A stretch of 64,000 nt of DNA, from the IMG/VR virus record IMGVR_UViG_3300045988_120248, positions 32,001-96,000 of that record. One strand, given 5' to 3'. Origin of the DNA: a virus. The notes beneath the pieces were generated by a model. That model had not been told where the DNA came from and searched no databases. It saw only the letters and a program-made list of their open reading frames with translations. Each line of letters starts with the position of its first letter. The stretch's first letter is position 1. Below are positions 2,846-60,789 of the stretch, piece after piece. Position numbers and translations under genes: made by a program.

Positions 2846-2968
2846 CATGTGATATTACTTGAAATCACATAAATCATGTGATATAGTATGGCTGTAAAGT
2901 AAATTTGACATGAACGGCAATAAAAAACCAAGCCTTTTGGGGATGAAAAACCAAAAGACAGTACCTGT
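2846..2968. promoter_or_regulatory. Operator/promoter region of the lysis-lysogeny switch
   Basis: CATGTGAT at 2846-2853, 2875-2882 and 2961-2968, with the inverted ATCACAT at 2864-2870. TTGAAA (2859-2864), a 17-nt spacer and TATAGT (2882-2887) point toward the cro-like gene. Confidence 0.5.
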
Positions 2969-2989
2969 TTCATGTGATTTGACACTAGC

Positions 2990-3253
2990 ATGATAATTTT
3001 TTTGCCCGCGTTTGTCAAGACCACTTTACAAAAAAATCATGAATTTTATGTGAATTTCGTAGGGGGTGTAACTATTTACGAACTTTTTAAAGCAGAAATC
3101 GTAAAGCAGAAGCGGATGCGGAAACTGACGAACGAGGATTTGGGGAAACTGACCGGCTATAAAAGGCAAACGATTGATGCGTTTATGGCCGGTGCCAGAG
3201 AGTCTGAAAATGTGGCGAAGGCTATTGCAAAGGTTCTCAAGATCGAACTGTAA
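2990..3253 (+). CDS. Cro-like HTH regulator (true start uncertain)
   Basis: C-terminal part LTNEDLGKLTGYKRQTIDAFMAGARESENVAKAIAKVL is a classic HTH. AGGGGG at 3061-3066 suggests a later, non-ATG start. Confidence 0.65.
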   Translation: MIIFLPAFVKTTLQKNHEFYVNFVGGVTIYELFKAEIVKQKRMRKLTNEDLGKLTGYKRQTIDAFMAGARESENVAKAIAKVLKIEL

Positions 3254-3264
3254 GGTGGAAACAT

Positions 3265-3405
3265 ATGGACAGTCTCGTATTCTTGGCACCAAACACAGAA
3301 GAACCGTTCGCGACATCGGAAGTCATCGCCGAATGCGCCGGAGTTCAACACCATAAGGAGTTTTTGGCGCACACGCAGCGCAAGGAGGAAGTATGCCACG
3401 TTTGA
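3265..3405 (+). pseudogene. 46-codon ORF resembling the N-terminus of Rha/antirepressor-type regulators (possible remnant)
   Basis: Hand translation gives MDSLVFLAPNTEEPFATSEVIAECAGVQHHKEFLAHTQRKEEVCHV*. The PFxTSxxIAE...H pattern recalls Rha N-termini, but full-length members are several-fold longer. Confidence 0.25.
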
Positions 3406-3614
3406 AGAAGAAAGAGCCTGACTTCATAAGGGTCACTCGTTTGATAAGAGGATATGCGCCTGTATCGAAGGTCGCGAAAATGATTGGGAGATCTGTACCA
3501 ACTGCTCGTAAAAAGATAAACGACCCTCGACAGTTTACGCTCGGAGAATTACAGATGATTTCCATGAGGGCGCATATTCCCTGGGAAGACATGAATCAGG
3601 CAGTGAAGCCATGA
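3393..3614 (+). CDS. Small basic protein, probably DNA-binding (hypothetical)
   Basis: 73-aa ORF. KVAKMIGRSVPTARKKIN looks HTH-like. GGAGG lies upstream, and the stop overlaps the next start. Confidence 0.45.
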   Translation: MPRLKKKEPDFIRVTRLIRGYAPVSKVAKMIGRSVPTARKKINDPRQFTLGELQMISMRAHIPWEDMNQAVKP

Positions 3615-4258
3615 GCCTAATCCGGAAACATTTTGAAGACCGGGACAGCTGGCTGATTGGCCGGCAGGAAATCGGAATCGGCGGCTCTGATGCTGCGGCT
3701 GTATGTGGGCTTTCCCCATGGACATCACCGGTGGAACTATGGAAAATCAAGGTAGGGGCTAAAAAACCAAAGGACATTTCGGCCAATGCAGCAGTGGAAC
3801 GCGGCGTTCGGATGGAGCCGGCGCTTCGAGAGCTGTATGCGGCAATGAATCCCTGCATGAAGGTTGAGCACTACCCATACGACATTCTGGCACAGAGTGA
3901 ACGTCCCTGGCTGACAGCAACGCTTGACGGAGACTTGACTGACGAGAACGGCCGACGGGGGATTCTGGAGATAAAGACCGGCCAACTCATAAAAAAGGCC
4001 GATTACGAAAAGTGGGCGGACGGAAATGTGCCGATCTACTATCTGACGCAAACCTGCTGGCAGCTGCTGGCTACAGGATGGGATTTCGTTGATCTGTTTG
4101 CGGCGCTTCAGGATATTCGCGGAGATTGGTCGATACGGACACGGCGCATCGAACGCGCCGAGCACGAGGAAGATCTTACATGGCTGCTGGGCAAAGCGGA
4201 CACATTCTGGGGATACGTCCAAAAGCGGCAGATGCCGCCGATGACACTGAGAATTTGA
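3611..4258 (+). CDS. YqaJ-like (lambda Exo-type) recombination exonuclease
   Basis: GIGGSDAAAVCGLSPWTSPVELW and GILEIKT motifs. It is the partner of the RecT gene downstream. Confidence 0.85.
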   Translation: MSLIRKHFEDRDSWLIGRQEIGIGGSDAAAVCGLSPWTSPVELWKIKVGAKKPKDISANAAVERGVRMEPALRELYAAMNPCMKVEHYPYDILAQSERPWLTATLDGDLTDENGRRGILEIKTGQLIKKADYEKWADGNVPIYYLTQTCWQLLATGWDFVDLFAALQDIRGDWSIRTRRIERAEHEEDLTWLLGKADTFWGYVQKRQMPPMTLRI

Positions 4259-4272
4259 ATGGAGGGAACACA

Positions 4273-4506
4273 TTGATCGTTGAAGTCAAATTTTACAGAG
4301 AAAGTGCGAAAGCATACGTTGGACGCGGGTACAGCTATGAAACGGACATGGCACTGAACGTTGGAGATCGTGTGCTTGTACCGGCTGGGAAAGGAAAAAA
4401 CAGAGCAATAGTCGTGGCGGTGAATGTGCCGCAAATTGCCGTCAATCCTGATTACTTCCCACTGAAGCGCATTACGGAATACGACATGCCGGAGGTGAAC
4501 GCTTGA
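4273..4506 (+). CDS. Hypothetical protein (TTG start)
   Basis: GGAGGGAAC precedes TTG at 4273. The 77-aa product is LIVEVKFYRESAKAYVGRGYSYETD...; it sits inside the recombination module. Confidence 0.45.
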   Translation: MIVEVKFYRESAKAYVGRGYSYETDMALNVGDRVLVPAGKGKNRAIVVAVNVPQIAVNPDYFPLKRITEYDMPEVNA

Positions 4507-7991: not shown

Positions 7992-8173
7992 GTGATTCAT
8001 CTTGGCGATATTTGCAAAATCAACGGCGCGGAAATCGAACCGGTTGACTGCATAATTGGTGGTTCACCTTGTTAGACAGGACTTGTCAATAGCTGGAAAG
8101 CGAAAAGGGCTTGCGGGTGAACGTTCCGGGCTTTTCATGGAACAAATCAGAATTATCAAGGAGATGCGAGAAC

Positions 8174-8610
8174 ATGACAGAAAGACCGGACGGACAGGTG
8201 AGTTTGTTCGACCAAGATACATGGTATGGGAAAACGTCGTTGGTGCCCAGAGCAGCCAACAAGGCCGTGACTTCGCGGCAGTCCTCGAAGAAGCAATCCG
8301 CGTCGCAGAACCGGAAGCCCCCGATATTCAAGTGCCTGACAAGGGATGGCCTACATGGGGGGGTACAGGGACGTGGACGGACGATGGAGCGTGGCTTGGC
8401 GCGTCCTCGATAGTCAATGGTGGGGAGTCCCCCAACGCCGTCGTAGAATCGCGCTTGTCGCAGATTTTGGAGGAACGACCGCACACGAAATACTCTTTAA
8501 CGCCAAAGGCGTGTATGGGCATCTTGCGACGAGCGGAGAAACGAGGAAAGGAACTACCAGAGGCACTCAAAGCGGCGCTCACGAATCAGGCGCATGGGCA
8601 GGATGCCTGA
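8174..8610 (+). other. Alternative-frame ORF embedded in the methyltransferase gene, interrupted by the same G7 tract
   Basis: AAGGAGA (8158-8164) lies 9 nt before ATG 8174. The ORF reads MTERPDGQVSLFDQDTWYGKTS...FKCLTRDGLHGG up to the G run. In the next frame it resumes as TGTWTDDGAWLGASS...ESRLSQILEERPHTKYSLTPKACMGILRRAEKRGKELPEALKAALTNQ and ends at TGA 8608-8610. Confidence 0.35.
8357..8363 (+). repeat. G7 homopolymer at the frame junction of both overlapping ORFs
   Basis: Seven consecutive G (acatGGGGGGGtac), counted by hand. Confidence 0.9.
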
Positions 8611-9561
8611 CCCCATATGATACGCAGACAAATCGTGTATACGGCGCGGACGGAATCTGGCCTACGCTTCCAGCGCAGGAAAATAGCGGTCAGAACCGAC
8701 AAAGCGTTTTCTGTGTACCTATCAACGACAAGGCAACTCGATTCTCTGGTGGTGGGGACACCAGAAAAGACGATGGTGCGGGAAACGGACTTGGAGTGGG
8801 CCACGACGGAGACCCTTCACCGACGATCACGGCTGCGGACCGCCATGGCGTGTATTGCGCGGGATTCAAGCTTGGCAATAGCGAACAGGCACGGAGCATC
8901 GGCTACCAGGAGGAACAGTCACCGACGCTCAATGCAGAATGCGGAGGAAATAAACCGGCAATTCTGGACATGAGCCATGCGAACGACGTGATTCGGGAAT
9001 GCGGCGAAATTGTGCCGACACTGCAAAGCAGGATGGGAACCGGCGGAAATCAAGTGCCGCTGACATTCCAGCAAAACGGATTTGGAGACTACAAACAAGC
9101 TGAGACAGCTAGTTCTTGCAAACAGCGAGATTATAAAGACAGCACAGACTTGTGTACCCAATATGGCATAGTCCGCCGGCTGACCCCGATGGAATGCGAG
9201 AGACTTCAAAATTTCCCCGACGGCTGGACAGATATCGGTGGATGGACAGATGAAAAGGGGAAACTCCACAAGGAATCATCAGACAGCGCGCGGTATCGAG
9301 CACTCGGAAACTCTATCGCGCTGCCGCCTTGGAAATGGGTTCTGAAACGACTTTGCGTACAGTATGAACGTGATGCAACGTTAGGAAGCTTATTCGACGG
9401 CTTGGGCGGATTCCCTTTGATTTGGATGCAGCTCAACGGATGGAACAGTGTCAAATGGGCAAGCGAAATTGAGCCGTTTTGCATTGCGGTCACGAAACGG
9501 CATTTCGGGGATGAAAACAATCCCGGTGATGCTTGGAAATACCTGATTGGAGCACAGAAAG

Positions 9562-9804
9562 ATGGCTATATACATCCATGCTGATAATCTCGCAAAATAC
9601 ATTGATGCAAGACTTGAACACTTCAAAAGCCAACCGCAGGTTTGCTCTGCATTGATGGATATTCAAATGCGGTTCGTAGTGTTTCCAGACCGTTTCGGAT
9701 ATATCACAATGGGCGATTGCGACGGATGCCGGTGGAATGGCCGGCACCAGAAATGTTCGTGCTGCCGACGGAATCCAGGCATAAAAGATTGCTATGAGCT
9801 ATGA
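9562..9804 (+). CDS. Hypothetical Cys-rich protein
   Basis: ORF track (MAIYIHADNL...). C-terminal CDGCRWNGRHQKCSCC cluster. Confidence 0.4.
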   Translation: MAIYIHADNLAKYIDARLEHFKSQPQVCSALMDIQMRFVVFPDRFGYITMGDCDGCRWNGRHQKCSCCRRNPGIKDCYEL

Positions 9805-31997: not shown

Positions 31998-33317
31998 ATG
32001 CCGCTCTCGGACAATATCAAAAACGGCCTGATTGCTTCCGGCCGCCTGAAAACAGCAATCAGAAATGCACCTGCGCAATATGGTGACCGGCAGAGGCAGT
32101 ACCTTGGAGATCCCAGCACAGAGTTTGTTCATCAATATGCAAAGTATGCAACGGATTTCATAAAAGCACGTGTGCAGGGCCTGAACCAAGATGCTCCATA
32201 TGAATGGGAAACCACATATATTCGTATGGCGGACATAGCGCCTGAGACTGCCTCCACGCTTCGGAAACAGGATGATTACAAGAGCGTCATGTTTGCGGAT
32301 GAAAGCATTGAATATGTGCCAGAAGGTACAAAAATTGATGCAATGGGCAGTATTTGGCTGGTCACAAATCCACAGAACATATCCAATGCTGTTGGCGGCG
32401 GCGTGATACAGAGGTGTAGGTCGACTTGGAATCATCTGGACTGGTACGGCAATCTCCTAAAAGAGCCGATTTGCGTCGAGAAGGCGATCTTAACTGCAAA
32501 CGAAAGTGATATGCAGGAATATGCGCTTATCACGAAGGGCTATGTCAACATTACGTGCCAGCGTAACGAAGAAACGAAAAAACTGAACACAAACAGCAGA
32601 ATCATCTTGGGGTCTGCGGCATACCACATTACCGGTTTCGGCGATTACGCGCAGGAATTTACCGGAGATTATGAATCAGTCCGGCTGCTTGAATTCACGG
32701 CTAGATATGAACCACCAAACGAAGAAATTGACGACATGGAAAACCATGTGGCAGGCGGAAAGACGTTTTCGTGGGAAATCCGAGTAAGCGGGAACCCTAT
32801 TATAAAAAGCGGCGCTACGGGCCAGTTGGAGGCCATCAGCCTTAGAATGGGCGAGAAAGCAGACAGCGACTATGACCATCCGATCAGCTACATATGGGAG
32901 AGCAGCGACAGCAATATTGCGGATGTTGGCATGGACGGAAGCATTTTTGGCGTTTCAGAAGGGACTTGCACTGTGACTTGCACATTGGAACAGAACCGCA
33001 GCATCAGCGAGACATATGAAATAACGGTCGTTCCGGCGGAAAGCGGAAACGAAGTGGCGTTCCTCGGAAATATCCCGGACAAGATTCGCCCGTATGAGTC
33101 TGTTACGCTGGATGCAGCTTACTTCGAAAACGGCGAAGAACGGCTGGACAAAATAACGTTCTCTTATTCAGGTGCGGATATAATGTCGTATACTGCGACG
33201 GAAGCAGGGAACAGCACGCAAATTACTTGCTGGTCTGCAAGCGATGCGCCGTTGAAGGTAACAGCGTCGTTTGGAGAATATGCAGCAAGCGTAGAAATCG
33301 GCTTGGAGGGCATTTGA
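31998..33317 (+). CDS. Structural protein with C-terminal Ig-like domains
   Basis: ISYIWESSDSNIADVGMDGSIFGVSEGTCTVTCTL and a second similar repeat. Confidence 0.5.
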   Translation: MPLSDNIKNGLIASGRLKTAIRNAPAQYGDRQRQYLGDPSTEFVHQYAKYATDFIKARVQGLNQDAPYEWETTYIRMADIAPETASTLRKQDDYKSVMFADESIEYVPEGTKIDAMGSIWLVTNPQNISNAVGGGVIQRCRSTWNHLDWYGNLLKEPICVEKAILTANESDMQEYALITKGYVNITCQRNEETKKLNTNSRIILGSAAYHITGFGDYAQEFTGDYESVRLLEFTARYEPPNEEIDDMENHVAGGKTFSWEIRVSGNPIIKSGATGQLEAISLRMGEKADSDYDHPISYIWESSDSNIADVGMDGSIFGVSEGTCTVTCTLEQNRSISETYEITVVPAESGNEVAFLGNIPDKIRPYESVTLDAAYFENGEERLDKITFSYSGADIMSYTATEAGNSTQITCWSASDAPLKVTASFGEYAASVEIGLEGI

Positions 33318-47559: not shown

Positions 47560-50500
47560 ATGCTGTATCAGCCGACGAATATCTATCCCAGCATGACAGG
47601 CGCTCTCGGAAACGGCGTAATTGATGCAAACAATAGTCTTCCCGTGAGCTGGCAGGTCAACGGCAATTCTCCAATGACCGCATATCAAATCACAATTTAT
47701 GCGAATAATACTGCGTCTACGCAACTGTTTTCCACGGGAAAACTGACGAACGGATGCCCGTTTTATGGAGTCAACTATGCTGGAGAGCCCCAATTCTTCT
47801 CTCATACAATAACAGCAGAACAGCTCTCCACAGCACGAATTGTGAACGGGCTTGACTACAAGATTGTCATCCAGCAGTGGTGGAATGACACGGACTCTGT
47901 TACACAGTCCAGCGCAAGCGTGTTTCAGGCAAGGACTGCTCCGTCCATCCAAATCGGCGCAATCCCGACACCGTTGGCAACAAGATCGTTCACGTTTAGC
48001 GCGTCTTATTACCAAAAGGAAAACGAACCGCTGAATTGGGCAAGATGGGAAATTTCCTCGGTGGAGAATGGAGAACACTCTATCATAAAAGATACGGGTA
48101 AGATCTATGGAGTATCGGAGTTGCTTCTTCCGTATGACGGATTCCTGACAGGACGCACCTATGCAGTAAGGTTATCCATTCAGACGGAGAGCGGAGTCGA
48201 CGTTACGACTGGATGGGAAGACTTTAACGTCAATTATACAGTAACCCCTATAACCGGTGAGCTTTCTGTGTGTCAAGCAAACAAGGCGCACGGAATTGCA
48301 ATCACTGCGCCGCAGATAAACAATATTCCAGCGACTAACACGGAAGGGGTTTATGTAAATGGCAGCAATATGGTGATTCCGCAAATTGTTTCATCTGAGG
48401 TGACATGGAAAAGCAAAAATGGTGAGCCATTATCCATAAAACCGCCGTTTGATTTGCTCTGGGATGGCGATGGATACTCCGCTGGTGACGTCTTAACCAT
48501 TAGCGGAACGGCAAGCTCATACGGATTCCAACCGAGTGAAGCATTCACGGGGGGGAGTGTAGGCGCTTATGGAAACGAGTATTGGTGCTGCTATGGCGGC
48601 GGAAAATACGTTGCAATCTTCTACGATGGAACAGTCAGGTATAGCACGGACTTCGTGACCTGGAATTCCTCGAAAATTCAGCTTGCCAATAATACCGGAT
48701 GGTGTGGAGTCGCTTACGGAAACAACACGTATGTGGCGATTTCCTACACTACAAAGTGTGTGGCGTATTCAACTGATGCGGCTTCGTGGACCGTTACAAC
48801 AAATGTGCCAAGTCAATTCATGTCCTTGATTTTCGCCGCTGGTAAATTTGTTGCAGGTGGAGAGGGACTCATCGCATATTCAACGGATGGAATTTCGTGG
48901 ACAACTGCAAACGCACCTGTTAGCAGCACAGAAGAAGTTACTGCAATCGCGTATGGAGGCGGAAACCCTTACGCAAGCAAATATATAGCATCGACTACAT
49001 CTGGCGCGATATACTATTCCACCAATGGAACAGAGTGGGTGAAGGGAAACGATACACTCCCCTTTTGGACTGGCTCTATTTGCTTTGGCGCTGCCACGGT
49101 CGGCGGATACAGAGAAGGATTCGTTGCAGTTTTCAACAGAGATGATACTATCGCTGTAAGCGCAGACGGTGTGAACTGGGAGACAAAAGGTATACATGCA
49201 CCCGGAAATCTTTATAGCATACATGCCTCGTGGAATCAGAATGACGGTTTCAAAATAGTTGCGGCTGGCGATGGATGTGTAATCTACAGCTCCGATTTGG
49301 GCGAGACATGGACATCCTTGAATAATGAGCCGTTTGCTGATTCGTCTGTTTATGTGTTTGAAGGAAACGGCGATGCCTTTGTTATAGCAGCCAGAACGGA
49401 CGGCGTTTATTCTACAGCAATGGCGTCGCAAGTTGCGCAGCCGACGGATATGGTTATCAATTTCTCGAGCGATATTTCCATTCGAACCAGAACCTCGGTG
49501 CTTCCAAGTGAAATCCAATGGAAGGATTGCGTATATGGCGATGGCGTTTATGTCGCTGTTGCATCCTATTCGGAAACAGCTCAGACAACGGCATTCGCCG
49601 CTACATCTGGAACCCTGACAGAGTGGACTTCAAGCCCACTTCCGAGTGGATACTGGAAAAGCATAAGTTACGGAAACGGTCAAGTTATTGCTGTCGGTAC
49701 GAGTGTTGAAGATTCAAAGCCTATTGCGGCGTACTCCCTTGACAAAGGAACGTCGTGGACGGTTGTTTCCATCGCGTGCGAGAATCCAAACTGCATAAGG
49801 TTCCTAAATGGAAACTTTTATATTGCGGGAAACGGCATTTACAGATCTCCAAACTGGGTTGATTGGGAAAAATGCACGCTGGAACAGTACCAAAACTATC
49901 CGCTGATGTCCTTGGCATATGGAAATGGAACCTATGTGTGTGTCACAACATACGAGTCTTATTACTCATACGACGGGATCTCATGGTCAAAGAGCCAAAC
50001 GTATAAAGATTGGTGGAGATGTGTTGCTTTCGGAAATGGTCTGTTTATTGCCGGCGGAATTGGAGGCACAACTTCGTATAGCAAAGACGGAATTACATGG
50101 GAGGAAACGCCTGGGACAAGGCCCGGAGATATTAGCTGGAACTGCCTTTGCTATGGAGCCAACCGGTTTGTCGCACTTTCTGGATACTTCGTTTACATGT
50201 CAATCGACGGAACTGATTGGGATCTTATTCAAAATATTCCTGCCAACGGGGCATGCTGCTTTGGAAACGGGACATTTGTGTTTTTCGGTGACGACACAAC
50301 GCTTTCAGAAACATACGGCCGTACTGCAAATGTTTTTGCTCGCTTGAATGGGGGGAATGTCGCGAAAGTCCCAATAGATGCGCCGAAGAAAATCCGGATG
50401 TCTACTTATGGTGAGCTCAGAAGCTTCGGCCTCGCTACGTCAGTGGACGGTATATCTACGGAAAAGGCGATGAGAGTTTTTGGAATGCCGCAGTTTTCTG

Positions 50501-58020: not shown

Positions 58021-58039
58021 TGCAATCCCCCCCACAATC

Positions 58040-60247: not shown

Positions 60248-60789
60248 GCGCCCAACTCAACCTCCTTCGGCCAACGCGGCAACGCAGCGGCACAGATTTT
60301 TTCGTAAATTTCTTTCTGTGCAAGCAGCGTATCGCGTTCCTTCTGAATCACACGATATGCGTCTTCTAATCCGAATGGCTCGTTGAGTGGAACACGGATC
60401 TTTTCTGACTCTGACGCTTGAGAGGCAGTTACAATGCCAGTAGGGGGGGCGTTAAGCCCCAAGGAGACGATAACCGCTTGGTCAACAAGTTTCATTTCAT
60501 CGGATGTCAACGTGCAATAGTAGTTCTCCAGACGATCCTTATCGACCGTGTAGATTGCTTCGCAAAGCGCGGTCGACTGCTTGCCCATCGTATCAATGGA
60601 AACGTGCGTGGGCATTGGCTTTTTCTCGGCAGTCGTGAGATAAACAATCTCTACAGTGCCGGAATATGTATTGTTTTTTTCATTACTGACAATAATCGCG
60701 GGGCGATTCTTTTTTTGCTCGGAACCGACAGCAGCATAGTCCTGACGAACCCAGAAAATGTCGCCCCGATGGATTCTTATATCCTGCAT
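60244..60789 (-). CDS. MazF/PemK-family endoribonuclease toxin with a C-terminal extension of about 65 aa
   Basis: IHRGDIFWV...VGSEQKKNRPAIIVSN...PTHVSI...AIYTVDKDRL...SDEMKLVDQAVIVSLGL parallels B. subtilis EndoA/MazF block by block. The stop overlaps the next start by 4 nt. Confidence 0.8.
   Translation of the reverse strand: MQDIRIHRGDIFWVRQDYAAVGSEQKKNRPAIIVSNEKNNTYSGTVEIVYLTTAEKKPMPTHVSIDTMGKQSTALCEAIYTVDKDRLENYYCTLTSDEMKLVDQAVIVSLGLNAPPTGIVTASQASESEKIRVPLNEPFGLEDAYRVIQKERDTLLAQKEIYEKICAAALPRWPKEVELGA

Follow-up and report, generated by a model that had tools for sequence, protein, structure and literature searches.

We analysed a 64,000-nucleotide (nt) stretch of viral DNA (IMG/VR record IMGVR_UViG_3300045988_120248, positions 32,001 to 96,000; hereafter the window, with coordinates on its + strand), which carries the gene of a phage C5-cytosine methyltransferase (MTase). 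This gene probably belongs to a large family whose members use ~140 codons in two frames, the MTase being encoded in frame 0 and a displaced module of the MTase beta subunit in a nested +1 open reading frame (ORF). Across the family, this second gene is real, ancient and widespread; rather than a newly overprinted gene, it is a part of the MTase that has been displaced. We refer to family members as fused when the target-recognition domain (TRD) and motifs IX and X lie in the frame of the catalytic (alpha) part, and as split when they lie in the +1 (beta) frame.

In the window alone, the open +1 frame did not exceed chance, as 27% of 5000 synonymous-codon shuffles of the repaired gene gave a run at least as long. 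The significance of the frame therefore rests solely on the comparison across the family. For this comparison, 160 loci with 45–95% identity to the window MTase were fetched from viral and genomic collections, using the MTase motifs only as bait, and we assessed 165 loci in which ENV and QxRxR lie within one ORF. The +1 frame was open from 14–21 codons upstream of ENV in 153 of the 165. In unsplit genes it ends 54–70 codons past QRRRR, with a few longer outliers, and it always contains LSQILE..KYYLS..KAC.GILRRA..RGK.LP; the +2 frame of the same loci is open for ~30–50 codons only. Within the region, the 95 fused genes together contain 2 stops in 12,426 codons of the +1 frame (93/95 are stop-free); in contrast, the rate was 0.046 stops per codon outside the region and 0.047 in frame +2. 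From synonymous shuffles, 2.7 stops are expected in each gene, and a stop-free frame arises in 8% of the shuffles only. As a control, Escherichia coli Dcm has five +1 stops in the corresponding region. An ATG is found 10–22 codons ahead of ENV in 132 of the 153 open loci, and in 129 of these 132 a Shine-Dalgarno (SD) core, formed by the K-E-M-R codons of the MTase, lies at most 20 nt from it.

Synonymous variation was also suppressed. The frequency with which two genes that share an amino acid also share its codon, calculated pairwise among 69 non-redundant genes (<80% identity) and not corrected for phylogeny, was 0.34 upstream of the overlap, 0.49 in its N-terminal half, 0.73 in its C-terminal half and 0.35 downstream. 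Over the same bases of the C-terminal half, amino-acid identity was 0.60 in the +1 frame versus 0.46 in frame 0. The N-terminal half of the nested product mostly mirrors the MTase, GKT, GRT and GKM being read from synonymous variants of W-E-N-V, which indicates that frame 0 dominates selection over motifs VI–VIII and the +1 frame over the loose tail past motif VIII. With a frame that is stop-free beyond what shuffles give and a reduced synonymous variation, the region is dual coding as judged by comparative sequence analysis. The initial annotation had proposed that a second coding frame is under selection here and is kept open across the family, with suppressed synonymous variation as a sign of it, and both points were borne out.

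The split relatives reveal what the +1 frame encodes. In 29 loci, the frame-0 ORF (motifs I–VIII, ~220 amino acids (aa)) ends 31–82 codons past motif VIII, mostly 31–35, and the +1 frame continues for 350–610 codons. Its product crosses the target-recognition region as well as motifs IX (RRLTPLECERLQGFPDGWT) and X (RYKALGNSVAIP). The alpha chain matches positions 1–160 of PF00145, and the +1 product positions about 210–322. Since the +1 frame runs into the TRD and motifs IX–X in these relatives, the nested ORF corresponds to the N-terminal ~140 residues of a beta subunit. The alpha and beta genes of split members overlap by ~120 codons and, because motifs IX–X sit in the +1 frame of split genes, translation of that frame is required there. 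The window gene and its closest relative, L004, are fused, with TRD-IX-X in the alpha frame, and do not belong to the split class, of which L116, L133 and L142 are examples; their nested product has no PF00145 match and lacks motif IX.

We searched 1.84 billion representative proteins with a profile and identified 4,478 clusters carrying the module. Among the best 150 of these 4,478 clusters the module is N-terminal in nearly all, and lengths range from 135 to 730 aa: 52 proteins have at most 200 aa and consist of the module as a stand-alone protein, 33 have 201–279 aa and 65 have at least 280 aa. Within this last group, motifs IX/X were found by pattern in 25–29 of the 65, and PCQ or WENV in frame in none (0/65). 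Six long module proteins were scanned against Pfam, and all six matched the C-terminal part of PF00145. The initial annotation had stated that similar peptides are annotated in related elements, which agrees with these clusters, many of them called peptides, and with the phage matches described below. Its view of the ORF as a novel overprinted gene, by contrast, has to be abandoned: de novo overprinting is ruled out by the presence of the same module at the head of beta chains of ~280–730 aa and by its occurrence in phages of three bacterial phyla, and the ORF instead encodes the module with which the beta chain of a split MTase begins.

Fused and split forms can be very close. L018 (fused) and L026/L087 (split) have cores that are 100% identical, and differ by a 70-nt linker indel after the module (L018 2890–3330). 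From this sequence comparison, the two forms appear to interconvert easily. A second G7 run (ATCAGGGGGGGCTGT) lies just past the linker indel, at the start of the TRD.

A tblastn search with the 145-aa nested product matched 129 phage records, and in all seven annotated records that we opened (7/7) the match lay in the +1 frame of an annotated MTase. The +1 ORF occurs in phages of Proteobacteria, Actinobacteria and Firmicutes. It measures 159 codons in gp127 of Mycobacterium phage Omega, 154 codons in the DNA methyltransferase of Vibrio phage K453, 149 and 135 codons in the DNA-cytosine methyltransferases of Pseudomonas phage TC7 and Streptococcus phage Javan105, and 138–141 codons in the gut-phage records PV036413 and PV036419 (annotated as hypothetical protein and DNA methyltransferase). 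The dmt gene of Escherichia phage P1 contains an unannotated +1 ORF of 163 codons with an ATG start (L178 2198–2689), which ends in ...CLLSQVLEQTSIPQRYFLSSKACAGILRRGEKRRKSLPPLLQMAL and includes ...LSQVLEQTSIPQR and YFLSSK; no SD was evident upstream of it. A literature search found no paper describing this overlap. In phage Omega, the MTase annotation consists of two genes in the same frame, gp127 and gp128, with a stop between them (L179 1535–2839), and the +1 ORF begins ~60 codons ahead of ENV, thus overlapping motif IV too. To judge by gene layout, phage Omega combines these parts in yet a third way.

At the locus as sequenced in the window (Table 1), both frames are broken at one G tract. 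The tract reads G7 and not G8, which shifts both frames, so that the sequence as it stands yields no full MTase and no 145-aa module. The products left are a 184-aa chimera (8056–8610), already recognised in the initial annotation as a fusion of the MTase to the C-terminal half of the embedded ORF, and a 412-aa fragment with motifs VIII–X, I and II (8346–9584). The same G7-type chimera is present in another sample (P0072/L176). Inserting one G yields the continuous 145-aa nested product and also links the MTase segment WPTWGG to YRDVDGRWSVAWRVLD...QRRRR, as had been stated, although this is trivially true of any indel. All three + frames are open across 8346–8413 (ORFs 8056–8610, 8111–8413 and 8346–9584), and the claim of three open frames is correct for that interval. 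The positions first given for AAGGAGA, ATG 8174, the G7 tract and the TGA stop were all confirmed, and so were the off-frame pairs RYMVWENV/DTWYGKTS and RRIALVADFGG..EILF/LSQILE..KYSL.

Table 1. Features of the MTase locus in the window.
Feature	Position	Strand	Remarks
Leader ORF, 27 codons, GTG start, VIHLGDICKINGAEIEPVDCIIGGSPC, TAG end	7992..8075	+	Motif III/IV including the catalytic Pro-Cys
TAGA, 4-nt insertion between PC and QDLS (stop plus +1 shift)	8073..8076	+	TAG[A/C] kept in one clade of permuted MTases
Chimeric ORF as sequenced, 184 aa	8056..8610	+	MTase QDLS-to-WGG joined to the C-terminal half of the module ORF
MTase frame, body segment 1: QDLSIAGKRKGL...RYMVWENV (ENV 8230-8238)...DKGWPTWGG	8077..8363	+	PF00145 on the repaired protein
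SD AAGGAGA of the nested ORF	8158..8164	+	Made of MTase codons Lys-Glu-(Met); 9 nt upstream of ATG 8174
Nested +1 ORF, N-terminal half, MTERPDGQVSLFDQDTWYGKTS...RDGLHGG	8174..8363	+	Predicted disordered; sequence mostly in step with the MTase frame
G7 tract	8357..8363	+	Both frames need G8; relatives have G7, G8 or G9
MTase frame, body segment 2: YRDVDG.. to stop 9582-9584	8364..9584	+	Motif search
Nested ORF, C-terminal half, one frame over	8365..8610	+	TGTWTDDGAW...LSQILEERPHTKYSLTPKACMGILRRAEKRGKELPEALKAALTNQAHGQDA; stop TGA 8608-8610
Motif VIII QRRRR	8433-8447	+	Followed by the TRD
Conserved helical module in the C-terminal half, ESRLSQILE..KYSLTPKACMGILRRAEKRGKELPEALKAAL	~8446-8590	+	Family alignment, structure prediction
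Motif IX (RRLTPMECERLQNFP)	9174-9218	+	Large MTase frame
Motif X	9306-9320	+	Large MTase frame
Motif I	9393-9410	+	Downstream of motif X
Motif II	9459-9473	+	Downstream of motif I

The repaired MTase matches PF00145 (E = 1.5e-32) and PHROG 116, and the gene shows, besides the profile match, the motifs PCQ, ENV, QxRxR, IX and GNS of a C5-MTase. It is not a single uninterrupted ORF with the catalytic Cys, being broken at 8073–8076 (TAGA) and 8357–8363 (G7). The gene (7992–9584) is also circularly permuted: it opens with HLGDI..GGSPC (motifs III/IV), and motif X is followed in the same frame by motifs I and II, which close the gene; this order is common to 33 fetched loci. The initial annotation missed both this permuted order and the break past the catalytic Cys, and placed motifs IV–VI in one frame; this holds from QDLS onward and fails for motif IV itself, which is split because GGSPC (to 8072) runs into the TAG and the 4-nt insertion, with QDLS onward in another frame.

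This break is conserved. A TAG plus one extra base (TAGA/TAGC; hereafter TAG+1) directly 3' of Pro-Cys was found in 14 loci of ~72–93% identity, namely the window (8058–8076), L004, L006, L012, L013, L015, L016, L018, L020, L024, L026, L027, L045 and L176. The 27-codon leader ORF with its stop is the same in all 14, and the 15 nt ahead of the TAG (ggtggttcaccttgt) are identical in 13 of them. Purifying selection was detected on the leader, with a ratio of nonsynonymous to synonymous differences (pN/pS) of 0.21–0.34 in comparisons among three lineages, and on the frame downstream of TAG+1 (pN/pS 0.14–0.19 between lineages). As both sides are under purifying selection in divergent loci, TAG+1 is a conserved recoding or splitting site and does not reflect decay. 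From its sequence it resembles either a site of +1 recoding or a point where the gene is split and translation restarts at the GTG within GGTGGT.

We also considered a mobile-element footprint as the origin of TAGA and rejected it, since the element in L005 lies a few nt further on, after an intact PCQD. In L005 (1–3925), three tyrosine-recombinase genes are inserted in the MTase just past PCQD. The insert is flanked by ~28-nt inverted repeats (ttatgccgagaaaatagttattccgaag and its complement) and a duplicated CCAGGA, and the nested ORF and the remaining MTase are intact downstream of it. Its position, the CCAGGA duplication and the inverted repeats mark it as an event separate from TAGA.

As regards the G tract, its length differs among five relatives of 85–93% identity: G7 in the window, L045 and L176, G8 in L004 and G9 in L166. 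L004, which at 93% identity is the nearest relative of the window, has both frames intact and a 145-aa ORF; since the nearest relative is the one with G8, tract-length changes must be recurrent. Frame breaks between motifs VI and VIII occurred four times in ~157 loci (window, L045, L176 and L166), in every case at the tract. A G run of at least seven between these motifs is present in 22 of the 153 frame-intact loci, and 110 of the 153 have no more than G4. L166 came from an exact-pattern scan of viral contigs, which found this one further relative; one exact-pattern metagenome scan for tract relatives gave only chance matches in unrelated genes. RNA downstream of the tract folded no better than shuffles (z = -0.19), and thus no frameshift-stimulating structure was detected there. 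Taken at the sequence level, the tract appears to be either a real frameshift hot spot or a recurrent assembly problem. Other homopolymers in the window are G7 at 48549–48555 and 60443–60449 and C7 at 58027–58033.

In the reading that we consider probable, frame 0 encodes the catalytic core, from motif VI to motif VIII, together with a loose tail, and the +1 frame, starting at an ATG and SD of its own, encodes the module. In fused members, including the permuted lineage of the window, a linker indel attached TRD-IX-X to the alpha frame, leaving the module behind as a nested ORF of 135–155 codons. In these genes the nested ORF is stop-free, retains an ATG with an SD, and is constrained more strongly than the tail of the MTase that it overlaps. 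By analogy with the beta chain of M.EcoHK31I, it may be translated separately as a small protein, which could bind the large chain non-covalently. The module would then supply the post-motif-VIII/hinge element, in place of which the fused chain has a low-complexity linker. A more far-reaching version, which we regard as rather unlikely, would have a three-part MTase family, P1 Dmt included, made up of the catalytic core, a ~140-aa module and TRD-IX-X with a freely reshuffled covalent connectivity. The module, in every case encoded in the +1 frame over core motifs VI–VIII, would be an obligatory trans subunit in fused genes, and in the lineage of the window the poly-G tract would be a true two-product phase switch and TAG+1 a further recoding or splitting step.

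The state of the window gene lends itself to other explanations. The tract might be an evolved poly-G contingency locus, with reversible slipped-strand changes between G8 and G7 or G9, in which the ON state would give the full MTase plus the module and the OFF (or alternative) state a chimeric alpha'-module protein plus the motif VIII–X fragment. This idea, put forward in the initial annotation, is possible if doubtful. It is in line with the recurrent length changes among relatives of 85–93% identity (G7 three times, G8 and G9) and with the tract being the sole site of frame breaks between motifs VI and VIII in ~157 loci, so that an in-ORF repeat sets the frame and is polymorphic in length among close relatives, as in a phase-variable locus. 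A literature search also yielded papers on phase variation by poly-G tracts in genes, including those of MTases. However, long tracts occur in only part of a single clade, the peptide read in the +1 frame across the tract varies (GGG, GGD, GAG), the W-G-G of frame 0 together with the G-G of the +1 frame already imposes a G-rich string, and the OFF products have no evident function. Thus, the length differences and the single break site that the switch implies are there, but the tract is rare as a long run and lacks a downstream structure, and an evolved or programmed switch is plausible but unproven. A sequencing or assembly artefact, the true sequence being G8, or plain pseudogenisation of a dead MTase would make the G7 biologically meaningless. 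Homopolymers are classic sites of indel errors, every off-length relative stems from metagenome assemblies, and the window MTase is broken at two places. Yet three independent G7 assemblies and one G9, from different projects, are many for a consensus error at an 8-mer, the remaining 412 codons are intact, and the TAGA break is conserved and not a sign of decay, and we therefore consider this unlikely. For the window sequence taken by itself, reversible switching, decay or assembly error would all be possible sources of the G7.

Two further explanations concern the +1 ORF as such. That it is a relic of a split ancestor, no longer translated or useful in fused genes, would fit with fused genes deriving from, or interconverting with, split ones through linker indels, and with a small ORF that has neither annotation nor family model. 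In a relic, stops would be expected to accumulate, yet 93 of the 95 fused genes are stop-free and synonymous identity reaches 0.73, and the ORF persists with its ATG and SD in phages of Proteobacteria, Actinobacteria and Firmicutes, making a relic very unlikely. We give hardly any credence to recoding, by which ribosomes would shift frames (e.g. -1 on G_GGG_GGU in the G7 state) and the frames would be parts of fusion proteins. The G7-state MTase frame does hold an X_XXY_YYZ heptamer, G_GGG_GGU, where a -1 slip restores W-G-G-Y-R-D, and in a few database proteins (P0062, P0082, P0095 and P0099) the N-terminus of alpha runs into the frame of the module. Nevertheless, the fusion junctions vary from protein to protein as mutations would, there is no evident stimulatory structure downstream, and the +1 ORF has a conserved ATG with an SD of its own.

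Going back to the displaced beta-subunit module, the nested product consists of a disordered N-terminal half rich in Ser, Lys, Arg and Pro, followed by a short helical domain with the consensus LSQILE - KYxLS - KACxGILRRAxxRGKxLP - xxLxxAL. AlphaFold2 models of the 145-aa product show the N-terminal half as disordered, with predicted local distance difference test (pLDDT) values below 50, and predict helices at residues 89–98, 111–124 and 130–141 of the C-terminal half with pLDDT 72–87, rising to 95 in the context of a beta chain; the C-terminal half had been read as helical from the start, in agreement with these models. The module profile aligns to residues 284–338 of E. coli Dcm, directly past motif VIII, pairing TLRDISECFP..LAQLLD..KYILTP with NTGESP..LSQILE..KYxLS (E = 0.0067, probability 5.7%). 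Residues 8–12 of the nested ORF (8195–8209) read QVSLF, and QLTLF, QLSLF, QVSLF or a similar sequence occurs in 45 of 153 relatives. We take this to resemble the bacterial sliding-clamp-binding motif QL[SD]LF, a weak idea given that the motif may be incidental, being replaced by QVTWS where the MTase changes conservatively.

Several results weigh against the interpretation as a displaced subunit module. One profile alignment, at the expected position, weakly suggests homology to the canonical segment past motif VIII. Neither the 145-aa product nor its profile matched any family in Pfam, PHROGs or NCBIfam; PDB sequence searches gave no match with a first profile and two chance-level matches with a second (E = 1.5 and 1.7), and Foldseek against PDB returned nothing below E = 2.7. 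The AlphaFold2 model of a full beta chain (P0128) is poor (mean pLDDT 48), and the packing of the module is not visible in it. As the N-terminal half mirrors synonymous variation of the MTase, only ~55 residues are clearly selected in the +1 frame. The nested ORF of fused genes is known from sequence alone, and in the window it is interrupted, its openness there not being beyond chance (p about 0.27).

Several known systems share features with this arrangement. The two ORFs of M.AquI reportedly overlap. In our split relatives the overlap is ~120 codons, unlike that type, with the beta module laid over alpha motifs VI–VIII, and the window gene itself is fused. As in the M.AquI-type split, L116, L133, L142 and others have an alpha chain with motifs I–VIII and a beta chain with the TRD and motifs IX–X, divided at the same bisection point (PMC3404938, PMC5944983). 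M.EcoHK31I has a small beta chain that starts independently in a second frame inside the gene of its alpha chain, and the enzyme requires both polypeptides (PMC2836561, PMC3404938). Similarly, fused genes, L004 (P0001, 145 aa) and the G8 form of the window have a small ORF wholly inside the large MTase ORF, in another frame and with its own start. However, the nested chain of M.EcoHK31I supplies motif IX, whereas in the present genes the large frame carries motif IX and the small ORF encodes the module that follows motif VIII; moreover, this layout extends across a whole family (4,478 representative clusters), and the subunit role of the nested product is a putative one. Both M.AquI and M.EcoHK31I lack this module and an overlap of 120–140 codons. 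E. coli dcm also overlaps another gene in a different frame (L177: vsr 2449–2919, dcm 2900–4318), but that overlap comprises 20 nt at the 3' end and involves an unrelated repair nuclease.

Phase-variable MTases with homopolymeric contingency loci are found, for instance, in Neisseria and Campylobacter. The window gene shares with them a poly-G tract within the ORF which differs in length among close relatives and sets the frame. It differs in belonging to a Firmicutes-type gut phage, in its tract being dual coding, so that one slip alters two products, and in being known from assemblies alone. With regard to permutation, the order III/IV-VIII-TRD-IX-X-I-II in the window is that of engineered class B permutants such as cp62M.MpeI (M.MpeI/M.SssI). 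In class B the new N-terminus lies between motifs II and III, and these were the most active permutants (PMC5944983). A 2018 REBASE survey reported that the natural permuted C5-MTases were all permuted in the variable region (type H, as M.BssHII), with no natural class B enzyme among them (PMC5944983). The window gene, by contrast, is a natural gene whose motif order matches class B.

Bacteria and phages seldom have long same-strand gene overlaps that persist across phyla, and most such overlaps go unannotated. Here, thousands of MTase gene clusters, that of the model phage P1 included, share an overlap of ~140 codons, and its coding status is anchored by the split relatives, in which motifs IX–X are made only through +1 translation. 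Present annotations of such MTases would thus omit a probable subunit, and activity could be lost when these genes are expressed heterologously or recoded 'silently'. C5-MTases also appear to vary more in architecture than M.AquI and M.EcoHK31I, the two textbook exceptions, would imply.

Finally, the neighbours of the MTase in the window are RecT, SSB, a DUF1064 protein and an HTH_7 protein, a phage recombination/replication module. In L004 the order is RecT-SSB-(one gene)-HTH_7-MTase, with RusA replacing DUF1064.

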